Of a stretch of DNA of 64,000 nucleotides, positions 1,756 to 34,426 are shown piece after piece. Position 1 is the stretch's first letter, and each line of letters starts with the position of its first letter. This stretch comes from Escherichia coli (GTDB taxonomy: Bacteria; Pseudomonadota; Gammaproteobacteria; Enterobacterales; Enterobacteriaceae). The position numbers and the translations under genes are program-made. A model generated the notes under the pieces. It did no database searches. It worked only from the letters and a program-made list of their open reading frames with translations, and had not been told where the DNA came from. The DNA is taken from the NCBI RefSeq assembly GCF_046105845.1, contig NZ_CP151004.1. One strand, given 5' to 3'.

Positions 1756-1780
1756 AAACCCGCTCATCAGCGGGTTTTCT
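1756..1780 (+). terminator. Intrinsic terminator hairpin (cccgct-catc-agcggg + ttttct)
   Basis: Perfect 6-bp GC stem followed by T-rich tract. Confidence 0.5.
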
Positions 1781-1883
1781 ACTTTTTCTTAACGTCGGGT
1801 ATATAAAGCCCATCGTTGAAAAAATTTTATCCATATTTTTTGAAAAATGCAAGCATTACGTCGCCATCTTCGGCGAAAATCAT

Positions 1884-2636
1884 TTATCTCGTCACTTTTC
1901 TTAATTGCACCTCAGCATATGCTTCTTCCTGCCAGCACTTTGTAACCAGTTTATCAATGACATCTGCATATCCTTTGTACCACTGATAATCAGTCAGGTC
2001 TGGTACCAGCTTCTGGACATGACACCGCGCCAGTGTCGTTGGTAAACGACTAAACCGGTTTCCATTGCAACGCCCACAAATCTTATAAACAGGCGCGCCA
2101 TGAAGCCGGGTCCTTTTTTCATCCAGGACAATACCTTTACCCTTACACCCTCTGCACGCTGTGCTGACTTCTCCCTTACCATGACAATGCTGACATAGTT
2201 CCTTCACCCACTCTTCCTTGATAACAGACTCCCCGCTTCTGGAGTATTTCACCACTTCGCGCAATACATTATGAAATCCAGTACCAGCACAAGGCTCACA
2301 GCGAGCCTTACTTGCCGCAGACCTGGAATAATCAGCAAAGGCAAAACTCACAAGGTAAGGGATGATCTGTAACCGGATTTCTTCACTCAATTTGTTCAAT
2401 GTCGGGTTATCCAGTGCCATCGCGTAATTGAGCAGACCTTCAATCGCAAACTGAGGATCCTGAACGCCAGCTTTTGCCAGGAATAAGGCAAACCCAAGCG
2501 GTGCTTTCGACTGCACCATCCCCTGCGCAGCCATCACATCCGTAATCGTTAAACCACCTGAGCCTGTCGCCGGTGCGGCATCACTCAATTTTGGAGATTT
2601 TGGGGAGTAATATTTTGGTAAGGCTTCAAGGTTCAT
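1884..2636 (-). CDS. Phage late-gene antiterminator Q (QuuQ-like)
   Basis: 250 aa from internal ATG (MNLEALPKYYSPKSPKLSD...); Cys-rich zinc-binding region CxxC...CxxC; position downstream of replication/nin-like genes. Confidence 0.85.
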   Translation of the reverse strand: MNLEALPKYYSPKSPKLSDAAPATGSGGLTITDVMAAQGMVQSKAPLGFALFLAKAGVQDPQFAIEGLLNYAMALDNPTLNKLSEEIRLQIIPYLVSFAFADYSRSAASKARCEPCAGTGFHNVLREVVKYSRSGESVIKEEWVKELCQHCHGKGEVSTACRGCKGKGIVLDEKRTRLHGAPVYKICGRCNGNRFSRLPTTLARCHVQKLVPDLTDYQWYKGYADVIDKLVTKCWQEEAYAEVQLRKVTR

Positions 2637-2649
2637 GCTCGTTCTCCAC

Positions 2650-3645
2650 TTACGCCAGTACGCCAATTGCCAGCGCACGATCGATAAAACGAAATATCAG
2701 CTCCAGTTGGGAGCCATACTTCTCTTCAAATGTCACGGTATCCGCATGCAGCTCGTCGTGATGCTTTCTGCACAAAGGCAACACAAAGAGATCATGCGCT
2801 TTTGTACCCATTCCACCCTGACCGTGGCCTATCAGGTGGTGGGGATCATCAGCTGGCTTTCCACAACATGCGCACGGCTGCGTCTTAACCCAGCGCGTGT
2901 ACTTTTCATTAACCCAGCGGCGACGTTTGGGGCGTAACATAAAAGACTCCGGCGACTCCGGATCCACTTTCAGCGCCAGCACCTTTTTCGCTTTATCCTG
3001 GATGATGCTGGTGGCAGGAACCGAAGGCACAAGGTCACTTTCCCGGGTGACAGATGGCACAACAGGCTTCGGTAATCTCAGTGCCTTACGGGCTGCACTT
3101 TCCGGTAAGGCATCCGCCAAATCATTACGAACCAGCCACCAGCACAGTTCCGGCATTGTCACAACGTGACTGTCATCAAAACCGAGATCCCGACGCACGA
3201 CAGACAACACCCAGCGGGCACAGTTATCCGTTGCCATTGATTCCAGCCGTTCCGTGAACTGGTCACGCAGCTGGTTATCGCAGTGCCAGCACAGACGAAT
3301 TGCTCCCGGAGCGTGCCGCATTGTGGTCATGTTCTCGCTGTGCCAGTCGGAATGAGGCCACTGACAGCCCTTTTCACGAAGTAACCAGCTTTCAAGACAT
3401 TCCACGCCACCAGCACGACGGATCACTGCCTCATTGCGGAACACGGCCCGAACGGCAGGATCATCCGCCAGCGGTTGTGATGCCGCCGGAACGGCACCAC
3501 TGGCGAAAGATGAATAACGTTCCGGCTCAGGCTCCAGCAGGACACGCCCCTGCATAAACAGGGGCATCAGCTCTGAACCTGGCCTGAACAATACAATCCC
3601 CATACGCGGGGCAATTTCAGGGGTCAGTAGTGCTCTCACGGTCAC
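2650..3645 (-). CDS. Prophage protein with HNH-like motif (YdfU/DUF968-like)
   Basis: 331 aa; C-terminal CACCGKPADDPHHLIGHGQGG...HDLFVLPLCRKHHDELH resembles HNH nuclease signature. Confidence 0.7.
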   Translation of the reverse strand: MTVRALLTPEIAPRMGIVLFRPGSELMPLFMQGRVLLEPEPERYSSFASGAVPAASQPLADDPAVRAVFRNEAVIRRAGGVECLESWLLREKGCQWPHSDWHSENMTTMRHAPGAIRLCWHCDNQLRDQFTERLESMATDNCARWVLSVVRRDLGFDDSHVVTMPELCWWLVRNDLADALPESAARKALRLPKPVVPSVTRESDLVPSVPATSIIQDKAKKVLALKVDPESPESFMLRPKRRRWVNEKYTRWVKTQPCACCGKPADDPHHLIGHGQGGMGTKAHDLFVLPLCRKHHDELHADTVTFEEKYGSQLELIFRFIDRALAIGVLA

Positions 3646-3646
3646 C

Positions 3647-4444
3647 TCAATGAACGGTATCGAGCAGCTTTAACAGCTCAGGGAATCGGGATTCGAAGAA
3701 ATGCGGCTGCGTCTCGCGCGGATTTGCAGGACTGGTGATGTTCTTGCCGAACATGCAGCCTTTCGCCGTCAGCGACCAGAATTTTTTGATGTTGTTAATC
3801 GCGGTACGGCTGTATCGTTCGCGTTGTTCAACGATCCCCAGCTTCACCATCTGGTGATATGCCTGATTAGCCGTCAGGCGGATACCATACTGCCTCAGCA
3901 GTGCACTCAGAGACAGCGTGGGGCGACTTGAGCCATCGTGTGCATCAGCAGGAGCATCAATGGCATAGCGCGGTGCCAGATTCGGTAAGCCAACAGCCTC
4001 CTGGAGTTTCTGGCAGGCACCAAGCACTGAAGAGTTAGACAGGTTTAATTCCCGGCGCATAAAGTCCAGCAGAATCACACCAGCCTGCATCTTGTCAGCA
4101 GCCTGTCCGGATAATTTTTCCGGTGCGCTGGTTACCATGTCGAAAGTACGGATCACCTTCAGATGGAATGACGGGCTGATCCACATTGCATAGGCATACA
4201 CCAGTTCTTTGCAGACATACGTCCCCTGGTTATTTCCGCCACGAATAACGTTAACTGGCTCTATATTGACCGAGTTGCAAATCTGCAACTCGCTTATTAA
4301 ACGCTCAGTTTGCTCATTGCGGAGCCAGAATGCGGGCTTATGCTTATCCAGAGAACCAGCAGCCCTGTGCAGATCGTTCAGGCTGTAACGCCCATAAGCA
4401 TCACGACGAACTTCAATACCATCAATAACCATCAGATTATTCAT
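3647..4444 (-). CDS. KilA-N domain-containing prophage protein
   Basis: 265 aa; N-terminal VIDGIEVRRDAYGRYSLNDLHRAAG typical of KilA-N/APSES-type DNA-binding domain. Confidence 0.7.
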   Translation of the reverse strand: MNNLMVIDGIEVRRDAYGRYSLNDLHRAAGSLDKHKPAFWLRNEQTERLISELQICNSVNIEPVNVIRGGNNQGTYVCKELVYAYAMWISPSFHLKVIRTFDMVTSAPEKLSGQAADKMQAGVILLDFMRRELNLSNSSVLGACQKLQEAVGLPNLAPRYAIDAPADAHDGSSRPTLSLSALLRQYGIRLTANQAYHQMVKLGIVEQRERYSRTAINNIKKFWSLTAKGCMFGKNITSPANPRETQPHFFESRFPELLKLLDTVH

Positions 4445-4463
4445 ACTTCGTTTCTCCTCTTAA

Positions 4464-4853
4464 TCAGGCGGCTGCACCCGCCGTTTTCTCGTACTTACTG
4501 ATAGTGATCTCGACCTTCCCTTCCGGGATAACCGGTCCCCACTCCACCAGCATTCTTTTCACCTGACTGTCGTCTTCCCACACACCCGCGTGGGTCAGGG
4601 CGTCAAACAGCGCCTTGTTATAGTTGTCCAGATCGCGGATCCGGTTATCCGGAGGAAACAACACGATCTCCACTGAAGCAGGTGCCGACGTTGGTTTTGG
4701 CAGACGACGTAACTGCTCAAATATTGCTGCACACGCCGCGCTCTGGAATTTGCGCCCCGCCGCGCTTATCAGGCTCTTACCAGCAAACGCCCCTTTGTTG
4801 GGGTGTCGCCAGTACGTGTTCACGCTGGGCGGGAAAGGCAGGATCAGCTTCAT
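4464..4853 (-). CDS. rusA: RusA-family Holliday junction resolvase
   Basis: 129 aa; RusA-like motifs (RDLDNYNKALFDALT...); typical lambdoid nin-region location. Confidence 0.85.
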   Translation of the reverse strand: MKLILPFPPSVNTYWRHPNKGAFAGKSLISAAGRKFQSAACAAIFEQLRRLPKPTSAPASVEIVLFPPDNRIRDLDNYNKALFDALTHAGVWEDDSQVKRMLVEWGPVIPEGKVEITISKYEKTAGAAA

Positions 4854-5209
4854 ACTTTCAGGCCCCTCTCATGTAACCAGTGGGCTGCACGCAGTCTGGC
4901 GTTTTCCTCACCGGCAAGCAGTGCGCGGATAATCCCGGCTGCCTCGCTGTCGTCGTCCTTCACTGTGGTATGAAGCGTGATACCCCGGGCCACGCCACGC
5001 TTTATCGTGATGACGCCTTTTTTCTCCAGTGCGCGAAGATGCTCCACCGCTGCATTCACCGAACGGTATCCCAGCATGGCTGCCACCTCCTGATTGGTTG
5101 GCGGGAAACCACGTTCTTTCTGATAAGAAATCAGCATATCCAGCACCTGCTGCTGGCATTGAGTTAACGTCGTCATTAAGCCCACACGTAATTCCCTGAC
5201 AGATACCAC
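4850..5209 (-). CDS. LexA N-terminal-domain-like DNA-binding protein (no peptidase domain)
   Basis: 119 aa; LTQCQQQVLDMLISYQKERGFPPTNQEVAAMLGYRSVNAAVEHLRALEKKGVITI closely resembles the LexA winged-helix DNA-binding domain. Confidence 0.6.
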   Translation of the reverse strand: MVSVRELRVGLMTTLTQCQQQVLDMLISYQKERGFPPTNQEVAAMLGYRSVNAAVEHLRALEKKGVITIKRGVARGITLHTTVKDDDSEAAGIIRALLAGEENARLRAAHWLHERGLKV

Positions 5210-5664
5210 TCATCACCCGATACAGCGCGCTTGCTGCTTTTCCGTAAGCACCGCTCACGGCGCGCCAGAAAATTGTTTCGTTCTGACTGGGAGTGGCTTT
5301 CACGGAATGCCGCCATCCACACGGTTGCAGCACGACGGTATAAGCCCCTGGACTCCAGTTCTTCAGCCTGGCGGGTCAGGCACAAAATTACCCGGGGATC
5401 GTTAGTGCCGACATAGAAATTGCGCACAGGTCTGGTTTCACGAACTGGTTGTGGTTCCGGCTCCTGCGCTCTCTCAGTCAGGCGCGGGAAATGTCTGCGT
5501 GTATTTCCTTCACAACGGTGAGCCACACGCCCACTCTGACGTAACTTGCTTGCTGACTGCAGAACGCGCTGCCGTGAGTAACCTGCAAAAGCATCTGCAA
5601 TGTCTCCGGAAGTACACCCCGGATGGGCTTCAATGAATTTCTGAACTTCATTCAAAAGACTCAT
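5176..5664 (-). CDS. PerC/Pch-family-like transcriptional regulator
   Basis: 162 aa; C-terminal LESRGLYRRAATVWMAAF matches the conserved PerC-family RRAA..W motif (from memory). Confidence 0.5.
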   Translation of the reverse strand: MSLLNEVQKFIEAHPGCTSGDIADAFAGYSRQRVLQSASKLRQSGRVAHRCEGNTRRHFPRLTERAQEPEPQPVRETRPVRNFYVGTNDPRVILCLTRQAEELESRGLYRRAATVWMAAFRESHSQSERNNFLARRERCLRKSSKRAVSGDEWYLSGNYVWA

Positions 5665-5666
5665 GA

Positions 5667-6485
5667 TTACCCCCTGAATCCTGCCGGGATCTGGCTGTAG
5701 TCCACGTTGTCGTAACTGGCTTTGAAGTACGGGTCCTCGCGTCTGGCTGCAGATACCGCAGGAACTTCCCAGGATTCTTCGAAATGACGATCCGGACCAA
5801 AGAACGTGACAGCCTGTTTCACAAATTGTGTGCCGCTGTTACCCATCGCAGATACCCAGCCCGCGTAGCGTTTCACACCTTCCAGCATGGTTTCGGGTTT
5901 TACCCCCTCATTCAAACGGGCTTTCCAGGCTTTGAAGGCTGCAGATTTTGAATTGCCACCAGCACGTTTGGGGTATGCCAGCCATGCCTGCTCAAACTCC
6001 GGAGAGTATTCCGGTCGGTTTGAACGAACTCGCACAGACTCATCAGCAGATGCACCAACAGCTATTGGTTCATTGACTGGTTCTTTGACTGGTTCAAAAG
6101 AGTGACTGGTTCTGGGTGAATCTCCTGCACCACCCCCTGGTGCAACTCCTGCACTACCTGGTGAATTTGCTGCACCAGATAGTGAATTATTTGCACTACC
6201 CCCTAGTGAATCTCCTGCACCATCAAGATGAAGGAGATAGATATTACTTGAGTTACCTTTTTCACCTTTCCGGGTGACTTTTTTTACCAGCCCGGAATCA
6301 CAAAGGGCCGCAATATGATTCATCACAGAACGTTTGCTAATCTCGCACTGGTCAGCAATATGCTGGTAGCTGGGCCAGCACTCACCCTGATCGCTGGCAT
6401 TATCAGCCAGCTTGATCAGAACCAGTTTTCGCAATGGATTACCCACTCGAATTTTCATCGCTTTAACCATCAGCTCCATACTCAT
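5667..6485 (-). CDS. Phage replication initiation protein (O-like) with DnaT-like C-terminus
   Basis: ORF 5667..6524 (TTG); likely ATG start at 6485 overlapping upstream stop; N-terminal winged-helix, Gly/Ser/Pro-rich linker encoded by iterons, C-terminal ...YSQIPAGFRG like host DnaT. Confidence 0.7.
   Translation of the reverse strand: MSMELMVKAMKIRVGNPLRKLVLIKLADNASDQGECWPSYQHIADQCEISKRSVMNHIAALCDSGLVKKVTRKGEKGNSSNIYLLHLDGAGDSLGGSANNSLSGAANSPGSAGVAPGGGAGDSPRTSHSFEPVKEPVNEPIAVGASADESVRVRSNRPEYSPEFEQAWLAYPKRAGGNSKSAAFKAWKARLNEGVKPETMLEGVKRYAGWVSAMGNSGTQFVKQAVTFFGPDRHFEESWEVPAVSAARREDPYFKASYDNVDYSQIPAGFRG
6074..6222. repeat. Iteron array (putative prophage replication origin) inside replication gene
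   Basis: Three copies of tgactggttc (6074, 6086, 6103) then five ~18-bp repeats related to ggtgaatctcctgcacca starting at 6115, 6139, 6160, 6181, 6205 (21-24 bp period). Confidence 0.6.
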
Positions 6486-6718
6486 GCTGCACCTCCGAGA
6501 TGCTTCATGTTTTTTCCGGAGCAAAAGGCTATAAGCGGCATACTGATGCGGTAATTACGGCCCAGCGGTTCACAAATCACCTTCTGACATTCACGGTCAA
6601 CCAGGCTAACACGTAGAACATGCCCTGCAGGCGTGGTGTACCACTGCCCAACTGTAGGAATTGATGTTTTTTTACGCTGAAGCAAACGGCAAATATTGAG
6701 GATCAACGGATTAAGCAT
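6482..6718 (-). CDS. Hypothetical prophage protein
   Basis: 78-aa ORF translationally coupled (ATGA overlap) to the replication gene. Confidence 0.45.
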   Translation of the reverse strand: MLNPLILNICRLLQRKKTSIPTVGQWYTTPAGHVLRVSLVDRECQKVICEPLGRNYRISMPLIAFCSGKNMKHLGGAA

Positions 6719-7547
6719 GACGATGCCCTCCGCTGATATTCAGGAGACGGTGAATATGAAAATTAGCCTTATCCGCCAGACGAATACGTTCAGCCTGCAA
6801 GTTAAGAAGGGTTTCTACCAAAACCTGATGCGCCTGCGGATCCGAAAGAGTTACCTTGCGCAGAGCACGTAGTGCAGTTGTTACATAACTGAGTTTATGT
6901 AAGTCTTCATCATTCAGACGAGTGAGGGCTGGGACAGTAGCCATGATGGCAGCCTCCGATAACAGTGAATTACCTTCACCACCGGAAACGCCAATTTCGC
7001 TGGTGGTGAACTGAACGGGGTTGGCGTAACCGGCGTTATCGGAAACCGGCGCACCTTTCGGTGCCCCCGTCCAGCCCACCATAATTTGGGTGTGCACAGA
7101 CACAGACGATAAAAAAGACGCTGGCGCGTCATATATCGCCGATAACATTTCCAGGACGCCAATCCCGTCACCCGCTTTATAAGGTGCCTGAACAGTGTAA
7201 CGTCCCGGAATGGCAGAATCAATGTGCTGGTGGTCCTTCACACTCAACAAAATCACGCCTGAATTTCCACAAAGGACTAAAGCACTCATGCGGGTAGTCT
7301 TTGCGAAGATAGATAACGCGCTGTGTTTCTGGTTCCCAACGAATAACATGGACATAAAGCCCTCTTCCGTCACGAAACCAGCGGTTAAGTTCCCGCACAA
7401 CTCGCCCCCCACAGTCAGGTAAAGTTCTCTGTGGTTACTTACAGCCAGGTGATTTGGTAATCTGCATTCATGCCGTAACAACAGGTGTTCAGCGACACTG
7501 ACCACCAGCTGTTGCGACAAACGGTTATTTGCCGTTAAACTGTTCAT
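6711..7547 (-). CDS. Hypothetical prophage early-region protein
   Basis: 278-aa ORF in the cro-side early operon; no motif recognised. Confidence 0.55.
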   Translation of the reverse strand: MNSLTANNRLSQQLVVSVAEHLLLRHECRLPNHLAVSNHRELYLTVGGELCGNLTAGFVTEEGFMSMLFVGNQKHSALSIFAKTTRMSALVLCGNSGVILLSVKDHQHIDSAIPGRYTVQAPYKAGDGIGVLEMLSAIYDAPASFLSSVSVHTQIMVGWTGAPKGAPVSDNAGYANPVQFTTSEIGVSGGEGNSLLSEAAIMATVPALTRLNDEDLHKLSYVTTALRALRKVTLSDPQAHQVLVETLLNLQAERIRLADKANFHIHRLLNISGGHRHA

Positions 7548-8107
7548 GCGTTAGTTTCTCCACAGACACAAAACGCCACGACGCCCGGAGCTGCACACTC
7601 GCGGGCGTCACTCTTTTCTGGAGCGCAAAAGATTTTGTAGACCAGTGCTGCATGCTCTTGGAGCTTCGAAATTGACAGATACAACTCATCATTAATTGCT
7701 GTCTGCTCGTGTGGCTCCACGACCCCATCTTCGATTGCCGAACGAATCTGCTTTGAGTAATTCCCGATCTGTTCGATGACTTCCAGCAGGCGCTGGTTTA
7801 TATCGGCGTTCTCTACTTCCTCAATTTCAGGAAGCGATACGAACACCCCACCAGCAGACTGTGCGACAGCATCCGCAATGTAGTGAGTGTCAGCCGCGCG
7901 CTGTAAAACCATTGCCCATCCCAGCGGGAAAATCTGATCGCCATCGGCACGAAGGCGGTTAAATAATGCGTTCTCTGTTACATCCAGCCAGTCAGCTGCT
8001 TCAGCGTAACCACCCGGCAACGCTGCGATAGTTTTTCTGACAGCTTTCACGTACCACTCAGGCTGTTTTTCTACTTTCCAGTGATACTTACCCACGGTTA
8101 GCCTCAT
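7544..8107 (-). CDS. Hypothetical prophage regulatory protein (cII position; possibly YdaT-like)
   Basis: 187-aa ORF immediately downstream of cro-like gene. Confidence 0.5.
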   Translation of the reverse strand: MRLTVGKYHWKVEKQPEWYVKAVRKTIAALPGGYAEAADWLDVTENALFNRLRADGDQIFPLGWAMVLQRAADTHYIADAVAQSAGGVFVSLPEIEEVENADINQRLLEVIEQIGNYSKQIRSAIEDGVVEPHEQTAINDELYLSISKLQEHAALVYKIFCAPEKSDARECAAPGVVAFCVCGETNA

Positions 8108-8138
8108 CGTTCTGTGGTTAAAAATTGAAGGTGTTCTG

Positions 8139-8339
8139 TTAATCTTTCGGATAGATATCCGGTCTTAAGTCAGATTTCGTAATTGCACCTGACGTGCATT
8201 GCTCAAGTTTTTTCGCCAGCACAAAACTGGCTTTTTTATAACCATTGAAAACCAGCCGTAAGTAGCCAGGTGTTGAGCCAACTTTTCCGGCCAACTCGCC
8301 CTGCTGTTCTTTGGTTAAAGAGTCCCAATACGCTTTCAT
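8139..8339 (-). CDS. Cro-like HTH regulator
   Basis: ORF 8139..8444; probable start at internal ATG 8339 (MKAYWDSLTKEQQGELAGKVGSTPGYL...); divergent from repressor gene. Confidence 0.6.
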   Translation of the reverse strand: MKAYWDSLTKEQQGELAGKVGSTPGYLRLVFNGYKKASFVLAKKLEQCTSGAITKSDLRPDIYPKD

Positions 8340-8394
8340 ACAATATGTACCTCCAGTATACATATTACATGATTGAAATGAACCTTCAAGATAC

Positions 8395-8413
8395 TTGTAC
8401 CTTATCGGTACAA
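8395..8413. promoter_or_regulatory. Putative operator palindrome in cro/cI intergenic region
   Basis: TTGTACC-ttatc-GGTACAA perfect 7-bp inverted repeat between divergent cro-like and cI-like genes. Confidence 0.35.
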
Positions 8414-8429
8414 AGGTTTTAATTTCGTT

Positions 8430-9104
8430 ATGAAAACAATCCATGACATCCGGCGGTCTAACGCCAGAAAACTGAGAGATGGTGTTGGCGGAAATTCATC
8501 CTTTGCCACCATGATTGATCGCGAGCCAACCCAAACCAGCAGGTTTATGGGGGATGGCGCTACTAAAAATATCGGTGACAGCATGGCACGGCACATCGAA
8601 AAATGTTTCGACCTGCCTGTCGGATGGCTTGATCAAGAACACCAGACAACGAACATCACAAAAAAACCTGATGTTTCAATCACTAACAAACAAATAACGT
8701 TAGTCCCTGTCATATCATGGGTACAGGCCGGAGCATGGAAAGAAGTTGGCTATTCTGAGGTTGATTTGAGCACAGCAGAAACGTATCCCTGCCCTGTACC
8801 CTGTGGCGAAATGACTTATATCTTGCGGGTGATTGGTGATTCAATGATTGATGAGTACCGCCCTGGAGACATGATTTTTGTTGATCCCGAAGTCCCTGCC
8901 TGCCACGGTGACGACGTTATTGCATTGATGCACGATACAGGCGAAACCACCTTCAAGCGATTGATAGAAGATGGAACACAGCGTTATCTCAAAGCATTAA
9001 ACCCAAACTGGCCTGAGCCTTACATTAAGATTAACGGTAATTGCTCTATAATTGGTACAGTGATTTTCTCGGGAAAACCAAGAAGATACACAATAAAGGC
9101 CTAA
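8430..9104 (+). CDS. CI-like prophage repressor (HTH + S24 LexA-type peptidase domain)
   Basis: 224 aa; C-terminal LRVIGDSMIDEYRPGDMIFVDPE ... FKRL resembles S24 Ser/Lys autoprotease. Confidence 0.85.
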   Translation: MKTIHDIRRSNARKLRDGVGGNSSFATMIDREPTQTSRFMGDGATKNIGDSMARHIEKCFDLPVGWLDQEHQTTNITKKPDVSITNKQITLVPVISWVQAGAWKEVGYSEVDLSTAETYPCPVPCGEMTYILRVIGDSMIDEYRPGDMIFVDPEVPACHGDDVIALMHDTGETTFKRLIEDGTQRYLKALNPNWPEPYIKINGNCSIIGTVIFSGKPRRYTIKA

Positions 9105-9118
9105 TCAATATTTATGAA

Positions 9119-9139
9119 CCTGCTTCGGCAGGTTTTTTT
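9119..9139 (+). terminator. Rho-independent terminator after repressor gene
   Basis: cctgc-ttcg-gcagg followed by TTTTTTT. Confidence 0.7.
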
Positions 9140-9772
9140 ATACTTGACAATGTACCTATGAGATACATAATGTATCCAAAAGAAACATGAGGCAGGCAAG
9201 ATTCAAACAAAATTTGGTTGTAACACGGCGTATGGCACATGCGTCGTTAGCGGTCTGGGGACGTTAAAGGGGACAATCCACTCCTTGCTAGGGCAAACAA
9301 ACCAGGTAGCCGGAATGTGCAAGTCAATGATGATGCTGATAAGACGCCTAACCAGCGTGGCGATCCGGTTTGACGCCTGGGAAGAGACCAGGGTGCAACG
9401 ATGAGGGCATTTATGGAGCCGCGACAAAGTGTGGTGCCGTAACTGGCTAAGTGCTCTCAGCGTTGTGGTCATCCGCGAAATGGCGCGGCGGTAAGTATGG
9501 CTGGGTTACTCTTTCCCCGTTGAGGACACCGGATTGTCAGGTTGACCATACGCCTGAGTGACAACCCCACCACAACAGCCACTGCTTTGGCGGTACCAGT
9601 TTGTACACTTGCTTCCGGCTGGTACCGCTCTTTTTACAAAACAGAGAAGAGCATCACCGGACGACGGGCTCATAACCCAATCCATCCGGGCGGCTGCCAC
9701 CGCAGGTGTTCTTCTCTGTTTTGTGGAGAAACCAACCGACCTTGCAGGGTCGATATGATGAGGAGCAGCAAA

Positions 9773-10135
9773 ATGGCTAGCGAACGCAGTACTGATGTGC
9801 AGGCATTTATCGGGGAGCTGGACGGCGGCGTATTTGAAACCAAAATCGGCGCAGTTCTCAGTGAAGTCGCTTCCGGTGTGATGAACACGAAAACCAAAGG
9901 TAAGGTCTCACTCAACCTGGAAATCGAACCATTTGATGAGAACCGTGTGAAAATCAAACACAAACTCTCATATGTTCGCCCGACTAACCGCGGGAAAATT
10001 TCCGAAGAAGACACCACCGAAACGCCGATGTATGTCAATCGCGGTGGTCGCCTGACTATTCTGCAGGAAGACCAGGGACAATTACTGACTCTTGCCGGTG
10101 AACCTGACGGAAAACTACGCGCAGCAGGTCATTAA
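9773..10135 (+). CDS. Hypothetical prophage protein (YfdP-like)
   Basis: 120 aa from ATG 9773 with GAGGAG RBS (MASERSTDVQAFIGELDGG...). Confidence 0.55.
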   Translation: MASERSTDVQAFIGELDGGVFETKIGAVLSEVASGVMNTKTKGKVSLNLEIEPFDENRVKIKHKLSYVRPTNRGKISEEDTTETPMYVNRGGRLTILQEDQGQLLTLAGEPDGKLRAAGH

Positions 10136-10200
10136 TATCGTTCTTAATTAACTGATTATTTATCTCATCACTGAATATCTTTATATAGTGAGGACTTATT

Positions 10201-11025
10201 ATGTCTCAGAACTTAGACGCAACCGCAATTAATCAAATCCATGCCCTTATTTCTGCTCAGGGTGTTAATGAAATTATCAGTAAGATTGGTGCCGATGCTG
10301 TGGTATTGCCTGAGAATTTCCGCATTCATGATCTGGAAAAATTTAATTTAAATCGCTTCCGTTTCCGTGGTGCGCTTTCCACTGCCAGCATCGATGACTT
10401 TACCCGTTATTCTAAAGATCTTGCAGATGAAGGCACCCGCTGCTTTATCGATGCTGATAATATGCGTGCCGTCAGTGTACTTAACCTGGGTACTATTGAT
10501 GAACCAGGTCACGCAGATAACACCGCCACTCTCAAACTGAAAAAGACAGCACCGTTCTCTGCCCTGTTGTCTGTTAACGGCGAGCGTAACTCCCAGAAGT
10601 CACTGGCAGAATGGATTGAAGACTGGGCCGACTACCTTGTGGGCTTTGATGCTAATGGTGACGCTATTCAGGCAACAAAAGCGGCTGCGGCAGTCCGTAA
10701 AATCACGATTGAAGCAAACCAGACCGCTGATTTTGAAGATAATGACTTCAGCGGCAAACGCTCCCTGATGGAATCTGTCGAAGCGAAGACCAAAGACATT
10801 ATGCCAGTGGCATTTGAAATTAAATGCGTTCCGTTTGAAGGTCTGAAAGAACGTCCGTTTAAATTACGCCTCAGCATTATCACTGGCGATCGTCCTGTAC
10901 TGGTTCTGCGCATTATTCAGCTGGAAGCGGTGCAGGAAGATATGGCTAACGAATTTCGTGATCTGCTTGTTGAGAAATTCAAAGACAGCAAAGTAGAAAC
11001 CTTTATTGGTACTTTCACCGCCTGA
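10201..11025 (+). CDS. yfdQ: YfdQ-like prophage protein
   Basis: 274 aa [24 protein letters not shown]...; matches my recollection of K-12 CPS-53 YfdQ. Confidence 0.75.
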
Positions 11026-11152
11026 TTTCATTACTGCAAATGCCCCTGCGGGGGCATTTATGGAAACGTAATTAACTCAATAATCACCGGATGGTGAGGG
11101 CTTCCTTTTACCCAAACTCAGCGCGGTGCAGCGCATATACGTGGAGAACAAA

Positions 11153-11689
11153 ATGTCATTTATTAAAACTTTTTCCGGGAAGCATTTTTATTATGACAAG
11201 ATAAATAAAGACGACATCGTGATTAACGATATCGCGGTTTCCCTTTCAAATATCTGCCGCTTTGCCGGTCATCTTTCTCACTTCTACAGTGTCGCCCAAC
11301 ATGCGGTGCTTTGCAGCCAGCTGGTGCCGCAGGAATTTGCTTTTGAAGCGTTAATGCATGATGCAACAGAAGCGTATTGCCAGGATATTCCCGCTCCACT
11401 GAAACGCCTTCTTCCTGACTATAAACGGATGGAAGAAAAAATTGACGCCGTAATCCGTGAGAAATACGGGTTACCCCCAGTTATGAGTACGCCCGTGAAA
11501 TATGCCGATCTTATCATGCTGGCAACCGAACGCCGCGATCTCGGGCTTGATGATGGCTCTTTCTGGCCTGTACTGGAAGGCATCCCGGCAACAGAGATGT
11601 TCAACGTGATTCCACTGGCACCTAGCCATGCCTACGGGATGTTTATGGAACGTTTTAACGAGTTATCGGAGTTACGCAAATGCGCATGA
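11153..11689 (+). CDS. yfdR: YfdR-like HD-domain phosphohydrolase
   Basis: 178 aa from internal ATG (MSFIKTFSGKHFYYD...); HD motif region ...HFYSVAQHAVLCSQL... Confidence 0.75.
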   Translation: MSFIKTFSGKHFYYDKINKDDIVINDIAVSLSNICRFAGHLSHFYSVAQHAVLCSQLVPQEFAFEALMHDATEAYCQDIPAPLKRLLPDYKRMEEKIDAVIREKYGLPPVMSTPVKYADLIMLATERRDLGLDDGSFWPVLEGIPATEMFNVIPLAPSHAYGMFMERFNELSELRKCA

Positions 11690-12042
11690 ATGTTTTCGAA
11701 ATGGAAGGGTTTCTTCGCGGTAAATGTGTACCGCGAGATCTGAAAGTGAACGAAACAAATGCTGAGTACCTGGTACGTAAATTCGACGCGCTTGAAGCTA
11801 AATGTGCGGCACTGGAAAACAAAATAATACCAGTGTCAGCTGAACTGCCACCAGCAAATGAAAGTGTTCTGTTATTTGATGCTAACGGAGAAGGCTGGCT
11901 GATTGGCTGGCGTTCTCTCTGGTACACCTGGGGACAAAAAGAAACCGGAGAATGGCAGTGGACATTTCAGGTCGGGGACCTTGAAAACTTCAATATCACT
12001 CACTGGGCAGTAATGCCAAAAGCGCCGGAGGCTGGAGCATAA
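11680..12042 (+). CDS. yfdS: YfdS-like prophage protein
   Basis: 120-aa ORF overlapping yfdR end. Confidence 0.65.
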   Translation: MRMNVFEMEGFLRGKCVPRDLKVNETNAEYLVRKFDALEAKCAALENKIIPVSAELPPANESVLLFDANGEGWLIGWRSLWYTWGQKETGEWQWTFQVGDLENFNITHWAVMPKAPEAGA

Positions 12043-12662
12043 TGACCACATTTACCAATAAAGAACTGATTAAAGAAATCAAAGAACGAATCAGCAGCCT
12101 AGAGGTTCGAGACGATATTGAGCGCCGTGCTTATGAAATTGCTCTGGCATCGCTAGAAGAGGAGCCGGTGGCATGGCTGCATTCAGAAAATGGCTTAGGT
12201 ATTCCGGCAATAACGAGGAGTAAAAACATTGCTGACAGTTGGTTATCAAAGGGCTGGTATGTTCAGCCGCTATATATAGCCAAGCCAGTGCCGGTGGTGC
12301 CAGATGCTCGTCCGTCTTTAAATAATGGCATAGTCGGCTTTGATGAAGGCTGGAACGCCTGCCGCGCCGCCATGCTTAATGGTGCCGAACCTGTAAGCCA
12401 GACTTACAAGTTGAACGAGCTGTCGGGCAACTCTCCGGTAACTCCGGATGGTTGGATAAGCTGTAGTGAGCGAATGCCGAACGATAAACAGTATGTTTGG
12501 TGTTGGGGTAAGTCTTACGGCTGGACTGAGTACGATACCTTCGAAGGGTATTACGATTGTTCGAGAAACAAATGGTGGGCAGTTACTGACAATGGGGAAG
12601 AACCGGCATCGAAAGTAACCCACTGGATGCCGCTACCGGAGCCGCCGCAGGAGGTGAAGTAA
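12042..12662 (+). CDS. YfdT-like prophage protein
   Basis: 206-aa ORF, contiguous with yfdS-like gene. Confidence 0.65.
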   Translation: MTTFTNKELIKEIKERISSLEVRDDIERRAYEIALASLEEEPVAWLHSENGLGIPAITRSKNIADSWLSKGWYVQPLYIAKPVPVVPDARPSLNNGIVGFDEGWNACRAAMLNGAEPVSQTYKLNELSGNSPVTPDGWISCSERMPNDKQYVWCWGKSYGWTEYDTFEGYYDCSRNKWWAVTDNGEEPASKVTHWMPLPEPPQEVK

Positions 12663-12856
12663 TGAACAACTTAATGACAACTAAACAAGTCGCCGATTTC
12701 TGTGGTGTTTCAGTATCGACAGTTCTTCGCTGGAACAGCGTAAACAGGAGAACTGGCCAGAAATACAGGCCTGACTTTCCAGATCCTGATATTAAATCCT
12801 GCCCAAATAAATGGGCATCACACAAGATTTACAGATTTGCGGGAGTGATTGATTAA
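12662..12856 (+). CDS. AlpA/excisionase-family small DNA-binding protein
   Basis: 64 aa; TKQVADFCGVSVSTVLRW helix-turn-helix; located next to integrase module. Confidence 0.7.
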   Translation: MNNLMTTKQVADFCGVSVSTVLRWNSVNRRTGQKYRPDFPDPDIKSCPNKWASHKIYRFAGVID

Positions 12857-13138
12857 TATGTATTAGCTTAGATGTGAGCTGACACATCTATGATTAGATG
12901 CCAAACCAAATCTGAGCGTCCACTCTTTAACAAGAGCGGACGTTACCAATGACCATATGACATGAATCGATAAGATCAAAACATTATCGCCAAGAAATGT
13001 CATACCATTGATACAAATAAAATTGATTACCCCCTTACTCTTGTTGAAAAGTTAGTCGTAGAGTACCTATCGCAATGTAATCAGCTTTAATCATCTGAAA
13101 ATTACTCCTTAAAAATTAGCTTTTATATACTGAACAAA

Positions 13139-13858
13139 TTAAATCTCTGTTTCTTTTCCTGTTCGGCTCAACCAATACTCCATTGTTTGAGTATGAATCT
13201 TTTCAGCGTATATTTTATCAATTAATTTATCTCGTTTTTCTTTAATGACTTTACGCAGTGAATCATATAACATAAAAAAACGTTCATCATCTTCCTCATT
13301 ATTACCATAATTTATTTGATTGAGTTCTGAAAAAATATGATAGCACCTTTTTTTCTTGGTCCCCGGCAATATTAAAACCAAGCCACATTGATCATATTCA
13401 AATTCACCTTTATGGGCAGCAAAGTTATGTCTAACATTCATAATAGAATCATGTAAATCTCTGTATTTTTCTGGCACATGCTTTCTCTGCAATGTGAATC
13501 GACGCCCTTTCGCCTCTGTAAAACACTTACCGTAAGTAACAACTTTTGATATAAATAAAGACTTTAATATTAGATTCTTTTCTAAATCAGGATAAATAAA
13601 GTGTTGTTCTCTATTAATGTTATTACAAATGTTTTTTATTATATTCTCCCAACCAATAACATTCCGAAGATCTTTATCCAGCAACTGTAAGGCCACATAT
13701 TGTTCTACAAAGCGGCCTTTTAAAGGTATTCGTGGTAATATTACACCTTTCTGCTTATAAACTCTTTCTATCGTATTATCTGGATATTGGATCTTCCTTA
13801 TTTCTATTCCGTCTTCTTCTGATACCCTTACTAATGGTTCATTTTTTAACTTTGACAT
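13139..13858 (-). CDS. Hypothetical AT-rich prophage cargo (moron) protein
   Basis: 239-aa ORF in low-GC segment between excisionase and integrase; no confident motif. Confidence 0.7.
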   Translation of the reverse strand: MSKLKNEPLVRVSEEDGIEIRKIQYPDNTIERVYKQKGVILPRIPLKGRFVEQYVALQLLDKDLRNVIGWENIIKNICNNINREQHFIYPDLEKNLILKSLFISKVVTYGKCFTEAKGRRFTLQRKHVPEKYRDLHDSIMNVRHNFAAHKGEFEYDQCGLVLILPGTKKKRCYHIFSELNQINYGNNEEDDERFFMLYDSLRKVIKEKRDKLIDKIYAEKIHTQTMEYWLSRTGKETEI

Positions 13859-14143
13859 GTTAACCCTCTTAAATAAAAAACTAACTTTATCCAGATAGTG
13901 TCCGTTAAGAAGTTTTCGTTACAACTAAGTTTCTAGGTAAATCATGAATCAACCTATAGTATCAAAAACATTTGGTGGTAAACATCTGCATTTATCAAAT
14001 AGCAGGAGCGATTTAGGGGCATAGGGATAGTGATGATATCTATACCCGTGCCCTCTTATGTCAACACAATGGCGTAAACTTAACGCTCACATCTCGCTCA
14101 AAGTGTGCTAGGAGATTTGGTTATGTTCAGGTGATACAAACCG

Positions 14144-15367
14144 TCAGTTTGAATCAGAGATAGTACAATTAACAATCGATTCAACCCTCTTCCACCATGC
14201 CAGGTAAGCTTTACGCTGTTCTTCTAGATAATCGCTCTTATCATAAACTTGCCATACCCCTGGCAGCTTATGACCAAGCATAATTTCTGCGATATGAGGC
14301 GCAGTAAGATCAGAAAAATTTGTTCGTGCTGTCCGTCTCAAGTCATGAAGAGACCAATGAGGGAATTGATATCCTAAACGCCGCCACGCGTACTGCATTA
14401 AATTGTAAGGCAGCGACTGTAATGATGTCCTACCGACTGGCTCCCTGCTTCCTTCCTTAGTAAAAAGCATATCGGAACCGTTGTTCATAGAGATAACGTA
14501 TTTTATAAGCTCTTCAACCGGTTCAATAATGGGCCGCTTTAGCGGTTCGCCTGTTATGTCCCCTGTCTTATGTCGTTCAGGTGGTACAGTCCATACCTTA
14601 TTTATGAAATCAAAATCACCCACCCTAGCAGTAATTAGCTCCGAACTACGGCAACCAAAATGCAGTAATAGTTTAATGAAGGCCCGGTATTTGGGAACCA
14701 TTCTAGAGCCATCGATCGCAGCATAAAGAATTTTAATTTCATCGTGTGTCAGAAACCGTTTCTTCTGACCTTTACGGATATCCATATCTTTACCCGTGAT
14801 ATCCGACAGCGGGCGAGTTTCAATAAGCTTTCTCTTATACGCCCAGACATGGGCCTGCTTTGCGTTAATTAGCAATCGGTCTGCTATTGCTGGAGTCTTA
14901 GTGCTAAGAGGCTCCAGGACTTCTAACCAATCATGCAATGTAGCTGCATCGTGAGGGATATTCCCGATTTTAGAGAACAGGTGCAGCTCAAACGAGCGGA
15001 GTATCTGTTCAGAACCCTTTTTATTTTTTACACAATATGCTTCATACCAGGCACGGATCACAGACTCTACCGTCATGGCTTCAGTAGCTTTTCGTTTTTC
15101 AGCCTGCTTGACCAATCGTGGATTACGGTTTGACTCGAGTTCACCACGGAGACGGATAACTTCTTCTCTGGCCTCTTTTAATCCAGTTGCCGGGTAAGTT
15201 CCGATATCAAGACGCTCACCTTTCCCTGCCCATTGATAACGATATTGAAACACTACGCGACCTTTCGGTGATACTCTGACAGACAGACCATCACGATCGG
15301 ATTTAACCAAAACCTTATCACGTTCCTTTCCAACGACTGAACGCAACCACGCATCAGACAGCGCCAT
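14144..15367 (-). CDS. Tyrosine-type phage integrase
   Basis: 407 aa; C-terminal catalytic region ...HDLRRTARTNFSDL...GHKLPGVWQVY... typical of tyrosine recombinases. Confidence 0.9.
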   Translation of the reverse strand: MALSDAWLRSVVGKERDKVLVKSDRDGLSVRVSPKGRVVFQYRYQWAGKGERLDIGTYPATGLKEAREEVIRLRGELESNRNPRLVKQAEKRKATEAMTVESVIRAWYEAYCVKNKKGSEQILRSFELHLFSKIGNIPHDAATLHDWLEVLEPLSTKTPAIADRLLINAKQAHVWAYKRKLIETRPLSDITGKDMDIRKGQKKRFLTHDEIKILYAAIDGSRMVPKYRAFIKLLLHFGCRSSELITARVGDFDFINKVWTVPPERHKTGDITGEPLKRPIIEPVEELIKYVISMNNGSDMLFTKEGSREPVGRTSLQSLPYNLMQYAWRRLGYQFPHWSLHDLRRTARTNFSDLTAPHIAEIMLGHKLPGVWQVYDKSDYLEEQRKAYLAWWKRVESIVNCTISDSN

Positions 15368-15587
15368 TACTCACCTTGTACAAATCGCAAAACACCTCTG
15401 CTGCTTTGTACATTATGTACAAGCATATGTACAGATTTTTGATGAAAGCAACCTGATCGATTTAAAGTTACATGAAAGAATTTTCAATTAAAGAAGCCAC
15501 ATAACTATATGTATTTAAATGAGTTATATAACCAGACCTCAATTAACTGAAAGGATTTTGAAAGAGTAAAAGAGCTTTAATTTGGGA

Positions 15588-30287: not shown

Positions 30288-31649
30288 GTGGAAAAAGAAA
30301 ATATCACCCTCGATCCGCGTTCTTCATTTACTCCATCTTCGTCGGCAGATATTCCCGTGCCACCAGATGGATTAGTTCAACGCAGTACCCGAATTAAACG
30401 CATTCAAACCACCGCCATGTTGTTATTATTTTTTGCGGCGGTAATCAATTATCTCGACCGCAGTTCGCTGTCGGTAGCAAATTTAACGATTCGTGAAGAA
30501 TTGGGATTAAGTGCCACCGAAATCGGCGCTTTGCTCTCCGTGTTTTCACTCGCTTACGGGATTGCGCAACTTCCTTGCGGCCCACTATTGGATCGTAAAG
30601 GCCCACGCCTGATGCTGGGACTGGGGATGTTCTTCTGGTCACTGTTCCAGGCCATGTCTGGCATGGTGCACAGCTTTACGCAGTTCGTGTTGGTGCGTAT
30701 CGGTATGGGAATTGGTGAAGCGCCGATGAACCCATGCGGTGTAAAAGTCATTAACGACTGGTTCAACATCAAAGAGCGCGGACGCCCGATGGGCTTCTTC
30801 AACGCAGCTTCTACCATTGGCGTTGCCGTAAGCCCACCGATTCTGGCGGCGATGATGCTGGTGATGGGCTGGCGCGGGATGTTTATTACCATTGGTGTAC
30901 TGGGGATTTTTCTCGCCATCGGCTGGTATATGCTCTATCGCAACCGCGAGCACGTAGAACTGACTGCCGTTGAACAAGCTTATCTCAATGCAGGTAGCGT
31001 CAATGCCCGCCGAGATCCGCTCAGTTTTGCCGAATGGCGCAGCCTGTTCCGTAACCGCACAATGTGGGGAATGATGCTCGGATTCAGTGGCATCAACTAC
31101 ACTGCGTGGCTGTATCTGGCCTGGCTTCCTGGTTACCTGCAAACAGCCTATAACCTGGATTTAAAAAGCACAGGGTTGATGGCGGCTATCCCTTTCCTGT
31201 TTGGGGCTGCCGGGATGCTGGTCAACGGTTACGTTACTGACTGGCTGGTCAAAGGGGGAATGGCTCCGATTAAAAGCCGTAAGATCTGCATTATTGCCGG
31301 GATGTTCTGTTCTGCCGCCTTTACGCTGGTCGTACCGCAAGCGACAACATCCATGACGGCGGTTCTGCTGATTGGCATGGCACTGTTCTGTATTCACTTT
31401 GCCGGAACATCCTGCTGGGGCTTGATCCACGTCGCAGTTGCTTCTCGCATGACGGCATCGGTGGGCAGTATCCAGAACTTTGCCAGCTTCATCTGCGCCT
31501 CTTTCGCGCCGATCATTACTGGTTTTATTGTTGATACCACCCACTCATTCCGTCTGGCACTAATCATCTGCGGTTGCGTCACTGCAGCGGGGGCACTGGC
31601 GTACATCTTCCTGGTTCGTCAGCCGATCAACGACCCGCGTAAAGATTAA
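30288..31649 (+). CDS. lgoT: L-galactonate:H+ symporter (MFS)
   Basis: 453 aa, multi-TM MFS pattern. Confidence 0.9.
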   Translation: MEKENITLDPRSSFTPSSSADIPVPPDGLVQRSTRIKRIQTTAMLLLFFAAVINYLDRSSLSVANLTIREELGLSATEIGALLSVFSLAYGIAQLPCGPLLDRKGPRLMLGLGMFFWSLFQAMSGMVHSFTQFVLVRIGMGIGEAPMNPCGVKVINDWFNIKERGRPMGFFNAASTIGVAVSPPILAAMMLVMGWRGMFITIGVLGIFLAIGWYMLYRNREHVELTAVEQAYLNAGSVNARRDPLSFAEWRSLFRNRTMWGMMLGFSGINYTAWLYLAWLPGYLQTAYNLDLKSTGLMAAIPFLFGAAGMLVNGYVTDWLVKGGMAPIKSRKICIIAGMFCSAAFTLVVPQATTSMTAVLLIGMALFCIHFAGTSCWGLIHVAVASRMTASVGSIQNFASFICASFAPIITGFIVDTTHSFRLALIICGCVTAAGALAYIFLVRQPINDPRKD

Positions 31650-31697: not shown

Positions 31698-33362
31698 TTA
31701 AAACGTTTCCCAATTCTCGCCGCTATCTGCCACGGCCATTTTACGCGGCGTAGCTGGCGTCACGGTTTTTACTACAGCCGATGTTTCACGCTGCTGTTGC
31801 TGCTGTTGCTGAATCCGGAACACTGCCACAGCTTCGGTCAGGCGACTGGCCTGCTCTTCCAGCGCGGCGGCGGCGGCGGCAGATTCTTCCACCAGCGCGG
31901 CGTTCTGTTGAGTTACCCGGTCCATCTCAGCAACCGCTAAGCCAACCTGATCGATACCACGGCTCTGCTCATCAGAAGCAGAAGCAATTTCGCCCATAAT
32001 GTCCGTCACGCGGGTCACGGCGCTGACAATCTCCGCCATTGTTTCCCCGGCGCTTTCGACCAGCGTAGAGCCAACATCCACTTTCCCCACCGAGTCTTCA
32101 ATCAGGCTTTTAATTTCACGAGCCGCCTGGGCGCTGCGCTGGGCCAGATTACGCACTTCTCCCGCGACCACCGCAAAACCGCGCCCTTGCTCACCCGCAC
32201 GCGCAGCCTCAACCGCGGCGTTCAAAGCCAGAATATTGGTCTGGAAGGCAATGCCGTCAATTACGCTGATAATATCGGCGATTTTCTGCGAACTGGTGGA
32301 GATATCGCGCATGGTCTGTACTACGTTATCCACCACTTTGCCGCCGCGTTGCGCCGTTTCAGAAGCACTTAACGCCAGATGGCTGGCCTGACGCGCATTC
32401 TCGGCGTTCTGTTTCACCGTTGCGGTCAGTTGCTCCATGCTGGCTGCCGTCTCTTCCAGCGAAGCGGCCTGTTGCTCGGTGCGCGAAGAGAGATCGTTAT
32501 TGCCGGTGGCGATTTCGCTGGCACCGCTATAAATGGCATTGGCCCCGTTGCGCACATCACCGACGGTACGCATCAGCTCTCCCTGCATATGGCGCAAACT
32601 CTCTGCCAGTTGCCCCATCTCATTAGAGCCATCCACCTCAATCGGTTTCACCAGATCGCCGCCTGCAATATGACGAATGCTGTCAATCAGGCGATTCATT
32701 GGCGCTACCAACGAGGCTTTAATACCGAACCAGACGGCGAAGATGACCGCCAGTACGACGATCATCACGCCCACCAGAATCCACATCGCCTGGCTGTAGG
32801 AGGCATTATTATCGCTGACGGCGATATCATAGAGCCGATCGTTTTGCTCCATGTAAGCCACATACTGCTTCTCGAAACCGTCCTGATATCCCTGGGTCGG
32901 CTGATCAAAGAACTCGTTGATTTTGCCTGCACCTAACAGTTGGATCAGCTCCGCCAGCGCATTGTGATAAATATCGTAATTACGTTTGATCTCTGACGCT
33001 GCGGCGGTGCTCTGACGCGGGTCACGCGGCAACGCTTCGTAATCCGCCCAGTTTTTTTCCGCCTGTTTCAGCGAAATACTGGCACTCTGCATTAGCTCAG
33101 CAACGGTTGAACCGCTACCAATATTATTCTGATCCATCATGTAGCGGATACCCGCGCGGTTGAGGGTGTTACGCGTCTGCAACAACGCAACCCAGCTGCC
33201 ATTCAGCGTGGATTGCTGCTGGCGAATGGTTTGTAAAACAGTGAAATTTTCTTTGTCATTCTTTAAGGCATTAAAGAACAGACCGCCTGATGTCAGTTGT
33301 AAAAGGCCAAAAACGGCCAAAACCAGCAGTAAGCTGGTCACAATTTTGATACGTTTTAACAT
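31698..33362 (-). CDS. tsr: Serine chemoreceptor Tsr (MCP I)
   Basis: 554 aa; HAMP and highly conserved MCP signalling domain; C-terminal NWETF pentapeptide; 7-Gln run. Confidence 0.95.
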
Positions 33363-33591
33363 GGTTTCTCTTTCCTGTGGACCGATGCAAGATTTTCGGC
33401 CTGGAAAGGAAAAACTTTATAGTCAACGTCATTATCACCGTCGAACATAATTCGTTTTGTTTCATTTTTGTACAAAACTAAGAGCGTCATGAATAAAAAA
33501 ATTAATCTTGTTTATTTATTTCACGCTATTTATCGCAATTTTGCACAATGATGCATCGTATGATGCGCGTTTTAAAGAAAGGATATCTGAT

Positions 33592-34134
33592 ATGTTAAAC
33601 CGTGATTTTGATCATCTATCAACCCTGCTCCATCTTTTTTTTGAGCGTGACGATATTTGCCAAAAGCTTAATATTATTGATCAAAACGAGATCACCGGGT
33701 GGGAAGTTTGGTTCCAGGTGGAGTTTGCTAATATGCTTTGCTCAACAGACCATGAATGGTGGCGTGAACAAACACTATCCTGTGATATGCGCAAAAAGCC
33801 CGAACGCCCCACCCTACGTACAGATTTTTTATTACGCAAAAAAGGCTGGGCACAAGATAGCTATATTGCGCTTGAAATTAAACAGAACAGAGATGCGACA
33901 AGTTGTGTTAAAAATATGATCGCAGACTTAGAGAAAAGCGCCAAAATTAAACGTTCTGAGCTTGATTTGCGTAGTTTCTGGACTTTAGGTATTACCCCGA
34001 TGATCGACAGAGAAAGACTGAACTCTCTCATCGACAGTTATTTAGATGAGAAATTCTATCTTACTAAATCTCGTAAAAAACACGTTTTACTTAAAGAAAT
34101 AAAAAATACACCATATTGCTATATTGTTATTTAA
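33592..34134 (+). CDS. Hypothetical low-GC protein, possible PD-(D/E)xK nuclease fold
   Basis: ORF 33508..34134; ATG at 33592 with AGGA RBS; 180 aa; E...D(FLL)...ALEIK spacing resembles PD-(D/E)xK motifs; AT-rich unlike flanks. Confidence 0.6.
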   Translation: MLNRDFDHLSTLLHLFFERDDICQKLNIIDQNEITGWEVWFQVEFANMLCSTDHEWWREQTLSCDMRKKPERPTLRTDFLLRKKGWAQDSYIALEIKQNRDATSCVKNMIADLEKSAKIKRSELDLRSFWTLGITPMIDRERLNSLIDSYLDEKFYLTKSRKKHVLLKEIKNTPYCYIVI

Positions 34135-34426
34135 CATTTATGGCATGAATATAATTTTTAGATGAGTAACACAACTGAGGGCTAAAACTCGCCTTGGTTG
34201 TGATCATCATCACATAAATAGCCTTCATAAACCTTGCTCAATACCGCTCAACCGCAAAACTGACCGCTTACGTCCCTAAAATAACCACTCAGTTATTTAC
34301 CTTACTTTACGCGCGCGTAACTCTGGCAACATCACTGCAGGATAGCGGTCAATTTACCTCCTCAAACGCAACGCAAACCTAGAACGGCTTCGGCCAACTA
34401 TTAATCAATACATGCCAGGTTTTACT

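Follow-up and report, generated by a model that had tools for sequence, protein, structure and literature searches.

The pentapeptide NWETF is where CheR and CheB dock, and the linker that leads to it is unstructured and about 30 to 35 residues long (PMC7390727, PMC10561060). In K-12 Tsr, the flexible chain that tethers CheR starts at I517 and comprises 30 residues, compared with 34 in Tar (PMC10561060). When the Tar chain was engineered to lengths of 22, 29, and 46 residues, the peak position of tethered CheR shifted linearly, by 0.128 ± 0.048 nm per residue, and tether length altered adaptation behavior; the methylation sites themselves lie 2.1 to 7.05 nm from the tether point (PMC10561060). 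A second relevant class comprises the VNTR-type in-frame coding repeats of bacterial genes, which have a unit divisible by three, change recurrently, and keep the reading frame.

Here, we describe a natural length polymorphism in the tether of the Escherichia coli serine chemoreceptor, which we followed up from a 64,000-nucleotide (nt) stretch of E. coli DNA (here, the window). The tsr alleles share with the engineered Tar tethers (22, 29, 34, and 46 residues; PMC10561060) the same kind of structure, an unstructured chain to NWETF that varies in length. Counted from I517 as in that study, they would give chains of 30, 33, and 35 to 36 residues, a range comparable to that of the Tar constructs. 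The Tar variants, however, are laboratory indels placed beside the pentapeptide, whereas the tsr variants are natural, sit at the helix-proximal end, change in three-residue steps, and are known from sequence. Like the VNTR-type repeats, the tsr tract has a unit divisible by three, recurrent changes, and an intact frame. Its array is very short (1 to 3 units) and stable, unlike hypermutable contingency loci or the long VNTRs of surface proteins. A literature search found no paper describing the polymorphism reported below and no measurement of its natural alleles.

The gene in the window is tsr, encoding the serine chemoreceptor, methyl-accepting chemotaxis protein I (Table 1). It is orthologous to K-12 Tsr over the full length, including the periplasmic ligand-binding domain. 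In a full-length alignment with the MG1655 protein (b4355, NC_000913, 551 amino acids [aa]), 546 of 554 residues are identical (99%), five substitutions separate the two (E92Q, A123S, H178Y, A537T, and E545G in K-12 numbering), and the sole gap is three glutamines at the tract, which corresponds to one clean 9-bp gap in the DNA alignment. Precomputed Pfam assignments for a database protein that is 100% identical to the window Tsr (P0001) comprise PF02203 (TarH), PF00672 (HAMP), and PF00015 (MCP signaling), and the same three domains occur in all 120 best matches of a full-length protein search. That search was saturated by 554-aa variants from E. coli and Shigella, which indicates that the 554-aa form is widespread, and it returned no outgroups. 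Of the complete E. coli genomes, 5,385 have a gene annotated as tsr. The chromosomal position of the gene is also conserved, with lgoR, lgoT, and tsr collinear in the window, K-12, and strain C4, and with btsT on the other side.

Table 1 Positions of tsr features in the window, and lengths of the spacer between the tethering point and the pentapeptide in Tsr sequences
Feature	Position	Strand	Carriers	Basis
tsr CDS (serine chemoreceptor, 554 aa, Q7 allele)	31698..33362	-		ORF and K-12 identity
tsr stop codon	31698-31700	-		ORF translation
NWETF pentapeptide codons (AAT TGG GAA ACG TTT)	31701..31715	-		Sequence; docking role from PMC7390727, PMC10561060
Rest of C-terminal tether, 25 aa	31716..31790	-		Translation
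Q7 tract, (CAGCAACAG)x2 + CAG, 2.3-2.4 copies of 9 bp	31791..31811	-		Sequence, TRF, K-12 alignment
AVAVFR-I codons, end of last methylation helix and tethering point (R516/I517, K-12 numbering)	31812..31829	-		Translation, PMC10561060
Sigma-28-type promoter-like site upstream of tsr, TAAAGTTT-N11-GCCGAAAA	33393..33419	-		Pattern match, one mismatch
FRI/FRL-NWETF spacer, 29 residues			K-12, IMT5155	
FRI/FRL-NWETF spacer, 32 residues			Window, CFT073, both Citrobacter, both Siccibacter, Cedecea	
FRI/FRL-NWETF spacer, 33 residues			Atlantibacter	
FRI/FRL-NWETF spacer, 34 residues			E. whittamii	
FRI/FRL-NWETF spacer, 35 residues			Q10 alleles (SCU-111, LAM_HS)	

The window protein ends in NWETF, a member of the xZxxZ pentapeptide class, and carries a 32-residue spacer after FRI. 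With a linker of about 30 to 35 residues that terminates in the pentapeptide, it belongs with the pentapeptide-tethered (high-abundance) chemoreceptors. K-12 Tsr shares with it the locus (with btsT and lgoT on the two sides), the FRI tethering point, a 28-residue tail as compared here, and the pentapeptide. The two differ in that K-12 has one 9-bp unit (Q4, 29-residue spacer) and the window has two (Q7, 32-residue spacer). With the end of the helix placed from PMC10561060, the Q7 tract starts directly after I517, at the junction between the helix and the flexible tether.

A preliminary description of the window had reported a run of seven glutamines ahead of the NWETF tether, and the tsr ORF does contain seven consecutive glutamine codons at that place. 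The plus strand reads ctgctgttgctgctgttgctg, the reverse complement of which is CAG CAA CAG CAG CAA CAG CAG, and K-12 tsr has CAG CAA CAG CAG (Q4) at the same site. The protein lengths that the description gave, 554 aa here and 551 aa for K-12, are likewise correct, with the whole of the difference falling in the glutamine tract. The alignment with K-12 tsr that it called for could have revealed the same Q7 tract in both genes; instead, K-12 has Q4. The description went on to call the tract a likely trinucleotide-repeat expansion, and here our reading departs from it. Tandem Repeats Finder (TRF) gave 2.4 copies at 100% match (score, 44) for a period of 9, compared with a 78% match and a lower score of 30 for a period of 3.

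All of the alleles that we aligned can be written as (CAGCAACAG)n+CAG, with n values of 1, 2, and 3 giving Q4, Q7, and Q10. The corresponding genes encode 551 aa (1,656 nt), 554 aa (1,665 nt), and 557 aa (1,674 nt), all in frame, and the aligned strain sequences differ at the tract by 9 or 18 bp only. Q4 is carried by K-12, C288, CFIAFB20190167, and IMT5155; Q7 by the window, C4, 372_BP0083, strain 550, and CFT073; and Q10 (CAG CAA CAG CAG CAA CAG CAG CAA CAG CAG) by SCU-111, LF82, LAM_HS, and S51. The Q7 run is no chance occurrence: at a glutamine content of 4.4%, about 4 × 10^-4 such runs are expected per proteome, and only two homopolymer runs of at least 5 residues, Q7 among them, occur in all of the long ORFs of the window. 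On the basis of these sequences, the Tsr tract is a short in-frame 9-bp copy-number polymorphism and not a trinucleotide repeat.

The preliminary description had also proposed a survey of repeat length across strains, and we carried this out in 5,426 complete E. coli genomes. We used allele-specific queries (40 and 49 nt, with 14-nt flanks) that are unable to seed megablast on another allele. These replaced a 120-nt Q10 query, for which the low-complexity filter apparently masks the 30-nt tract, with Q4 matches being joined from two pieces. The Q7 query gave a full-coverage match in 4,051 genomes (75%), and the Q4 query matched in 1,208 (22%); a further 75 showed a partial match at 73% coverage, as would be predicted for alleles of Q10 or longer. 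These counts hinge on exact seeding by 28-mers, and the genome collection is skewed to laboratory and clinical strains, such that the frequencies are not population estimates. The share of Q4 in particular is pushed up by laboratory genomes derived from K-12 and B, of which there are many among its matches. A one-mismatch flank occurs in 71 of the 1,208 Q4 genomes, and the four of these that were listed include IMT5155. Q7 was seen in O157:H7, O55:H7, O121, O145, O26, and O111 strains, in CFT073, and in Shigella flexneri records.

A search with the 203-nt 3' end of tsr, which matched in 5,382 of the 5,426 genomes, gave a similar picture. The matches were gap-free at 95% identity or more in 4,042 genomes and fell between 90 and 95% identity in 1,335, with the sampled rows of this second band all being 9 bp shorter. 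An evenly spaced sample of 60 genomes contained 45 of the Q7 length and 14 of the Q4 length. Q4, Q7, and Q10 together account for 5,334 of the 5,382 genomes with a tsr 3' end. The remaining approximately 48 presumably carry single-nucleotide polymorphisms (SNPs) that break the query seed, and intermediate lengths are possible among them. The allele-specific query for Q1 matched none of the 5,426 genomes. For Q13, there was no single-piece full-length match among the best matches listed, and a Q13 allele on a divergent flank may exist. Q7 is thus the majority allele, and the Q4 of K-12 is a minority allele.

We then compared 12 full-length tsr genes with the tract columns removed. The Q4 strain IMT5155 lies 2 SNPs from strain 550, which has Q7, and 28 SNPs from K-12, which has Q4. 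LAM_HS and S51, both Q10, lie 8 SNPs from a Q4 strain and 25 to 31 SNPs from LF82 and SCU-111, the other Q10 strains. Because strains with the same allele are in these cases farther apart by SNPs than strains with different alleles, Q4 and Q10 each appear to have at least two origins. Part of this apparent recurrence could be explained by short-patch recombination rather than by new slippage. A recombination patch confined to the tract would have to be very short, since lineage-specific SNPs flank it at 6 nt on the downstream side and at 42 nt on the upstream side.

To place these alleles relative to other species, we drew outgroups from a single scan with a degenerate DNA pattern for ADSxENWETF*, run on one genome per species, which yielded 7 loci. 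The pattern missed E. coli itself and Salmonella, and the comparison stands without E. albertii, E. fergusonii, E. marmotae, and Salmonella. The Tsr orthologs of Citrobacter sedlakii (89% identity) and Siccibacter turicensis (81% identity) are both 554 aa long and align with the window protein over 554 columns without a gap. In Citrobacter, the seven columns of the Q7 tract are filled by QQEQQRA. The FRI/FRL motif is kept in all of the outgroup orthologs, and in five of the six from other genera the spacer before NWETF is 32 residues, the same as in Q7. Within the genus, Escherichia whittamii has a tract of 9 residues rather than 7 (QQTQQQQQQ; CAG CAG ACG CAA CAG CAG CAA CAG CAG) in which two CAACAGCAG units are kept.

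The K-12-type 3' flank (GCTGCG, Ala537) is also seen beside Q7 (O26 and O111 strains) and beside Q10 (LAM_HS and S51), a distribution that fits Q7 being parental to both Q4 and Q10 within this haplogroup. Since Q7 is the majority allele, since the other-genus orthologs have the 554-aa length and the 32-residue spacer, and since E. whittamii retains two units, Q7 is the common and probably ancestral length, and the Q4 of K-12 and its relatives is probably a contraction; close outgroups that bear on this direction are few, with E. whittamii being the only one within the genus.

We therefore consider it highly probable that the tract is an ordinary in-frame 9-bp copy-number polymorphism at the junction of helix and tether, with two units as the common and probably ancestral state and one in K-12 and its relatives, and that it is probably near neutral. 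As judged from the repeat structure, the number of units would change by slipped-strand mispairing or by unequal exchange between tandem units, and each unit lost or gained would alter the tether by three residues. A deletion from two units to one could use 12 nt of register-shifted homology, and a duplication from one unit to two would have only the 3 nt of CAG. Contraction may thus be easier than gain.

The expectation of near neutrality comes from the engineered Tar tethers. Using the shift per residue measured in that system, we estimate that Q7 would extend the reach of CheR by about 0.38 nm relative to the K-12 Q4 allele, with an increase of 1.1 nm in contour length, although this figure of roughly 0.4 nm is extrapolated from Tar constructs that were altered at the opposite end of the tether. 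Q7 would also bring the Tsr chain to 33 residues, near the 34 of Tar. Because a shift of about 0.38 nm is small beside methylation-site distances of 2.1 to 7.05 nm, we expect a small functional effect, and the tether difference between Q4 and Q7 is probably close to neutral. The statement in the preliminary description that linker length affects CheR/CheB tethering stands for changes of 5 to 12 residues in Tar (PMC10561060) and may extend to the natural three-residue case in Tsr by analogy.

One alternative is that copy number is under selection, with lineages tuning the tether to 29, 32, or 35 residues for CheR/CheB reach, adaptation, and serine taxis. The three discrete and recurrent lengths could in this case be selected to set the reach of CheR and CheB, the speed and precision of adaptation, and the assistance neighborhood, and models that use the 30-residue Tsr tether, explained by the position of the methylation sites, would rest on a minority K-12 contraction. 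Several of our observations are in line with this idea: Q4 and Q10 appear to have arisen independently more than once, the range is confined to 1 to 3 units with Q1 absent from the survey, the 32-residue spacer is kept across genera, and in engineered Tar adaptation does change with tether length (PMC10561060). We nevertheless regard it as unlikely. Tandem repeats recur without selection anyway, the predicted shift of about 0.4 nm is slight against distances of 2.1 to 7.05 nm, and the hosts listed for Q4 and for Q7 strains show no habitat pattern. In addition, CFT073, which has Q7, was reported to respond to amino acids much as does the K-12 strain RP437, which has Q4 (PMC3559539), a similarity that argues weakly against a gross functional difference.

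Less probable again is the view taken in the preliminary description, in which the Q4 of K-12 is the reference state and the window strain carries a recent CAG/CAA trinucleotide expansion. The two proteins do differ in length at the tract alone, with Q4 in K-12 and Q7 in the window, and expansions do happen here, as seen from Q10 on two different backgrounds. However, an expansion in this particular strain is difficult to reconcile with a Q7 allele that spans many lineages and 75% of complete genomes, with other-genus orthologs of 554 aa and 32-residue spacers, and with the two units retained in E. whittamii. The unit is moreover 9 bp and not 3 bp, with Q4, Q7, and Q10 the only lengths seen, and a step from one unit to two would have only 3 nt of repeat homology to draw on. 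Finally, although the tract is a short tandem repeat within a coding sequence, there is next to no chance that it is a phase-variable contingency repeat switching Tsr on and off or an artifact of sequencing or assembly, since every observed step is 9 bp and in frame with no on/off switching, the three lengths that cover 5,334 of 5,382 genomes are far too stable for a contingency locus, and an identical Q7 sequence recurs across 4,051 genomes finished independently of one another as well as in a crystallized construct.

For genome biology, a 9-bp polymorphism of this kind matters little, as the tract is a stable and common allele of a well-known gene. The Q7 sequence is already known from thousands of annotated RefSeq genomes and from PDB 3ZX6. 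The Tsr part of that structure, the C-terminal 120 residues, is identical to the window protein (31701-32060), including Q7, PATPRK, and SGENWETF; the crystallized protein is a HAMP-Tsr chimera engineered with a HAMP domain of archaeal origin, and the likeness is a sequence match only. PDB 6S1K carries the K-12 Q4 form. The window haplotype that 3ZX6 matches is an uncommon one, with Q7, Thr in PATPRK, and Gly in SGENWETF, and the construct therefore derives from a non-K-12 tsr allele.

For work on chemotaxis, the polymorphism is a reason for caution, as the K-12 form of Tsr, 551 aa long and credited with a 30-residue tether, does not represent the typical receptor of E. coli. Around three quarters of sequenced strains, along with the other-genus orthologs, have a tether that is three residues longer and near the 34 of Tar, and chemotaxis models parameterized on the K-12 tether use a minority and probably contracted allele. 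Because the K-12 tether is atypical, arguments that set the "shorter" Tsr tether against the position of the methylation sites (PMC10561060) need to be checked with Q7.

Other length variation was seen within Tsr. A second repeat lies on the minus strand at 31864-31880, where (GCC/GCG)n encodes six alanines (SAAAAAAL) in the last methylation helix; TRF gave a period of 3 and 5.7 copies. One protein of 553 aa (P0048), found on one contig in the database, has five alanines at this place, which would shift the helix register and might reflect either an error or a defective allele. Two further variants, each from a single E. coli record, carry in-frame tandem duplications: 16 aa in the HAMP domain of a 570-aa protein (P0015) and 14 aa in the first methylation helix of a 568-aa protein (P0079).

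The genes beside tsr also vary among strains. The gene at its 3' side is lgoT in the window (30288-31649), K-12, C4, LAM_HS, and S51. In CFT073, LF82, IMT5155, strain 550, SCU-111, and 372_BP0083, a TRAP transporter (binding protein plus large and small permease) occupies this place, followed in CFT073 by a Na+/H+ antiporter. This looks like a lineage-specific replacement.

On the other side, the sequence upstream of tsr contains a putative sigma-28-type promoter (Table 1), which is context for the gene and not part of the glutamine-tract polymorphism. The site reads TAAAGTTTTTCCTTTCCAGGCCGAAAA, with one mismatch to TAAAGTTT-N11-GCCGATAA, and there is one such match in the window, compared with 0.07 expected by chance. 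It falls within the stretch of 58 nt before the tsr ATG that is common to the window, K-12, CFT073, and C4. Because these four genomes share just those first 58 nt, the gap between tsr and btsT is a variable insertion hotspot. In the window, the gap (33421-34243) is AT-rich and about 820 bp long and contains an orphan plus-strand ORF of 180 aa (approximately 33592-34134) with no Pfam match. The same gap is about 137 nt in K-12 and CFT073 and holds a 12-kb hpa (4-hydroxyphenylacetate) cluster in C4. The promoter-like site lies exactly at the inner edge of this variable region, and the insertion breakpoint therefore abuts the putative tsr promoter.

Farther from tsr, a prophage-like block at approximately 1750-15400 shares 96 to 97% identity with a prophage in E. 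coli strain C4. The annotation in C4 lists RusA and KilA-N along with an antitermination protein, a methyltransferase, and a LexA-like repressor, and the prophage ends in a tyrosine integrase beside yjjG. The block is absent at the same place in CFT073, where prfC comes after yjjG. At the other end of the window, beyond yjiA (approximately 37800-64000), the sequence is not collinear with CFT073 except for a pair of short matching stretches close to symE and an Rpn-family nuclease gene, and this segment is probably the variable restriction- and defense-rich region near hsd/mcr.
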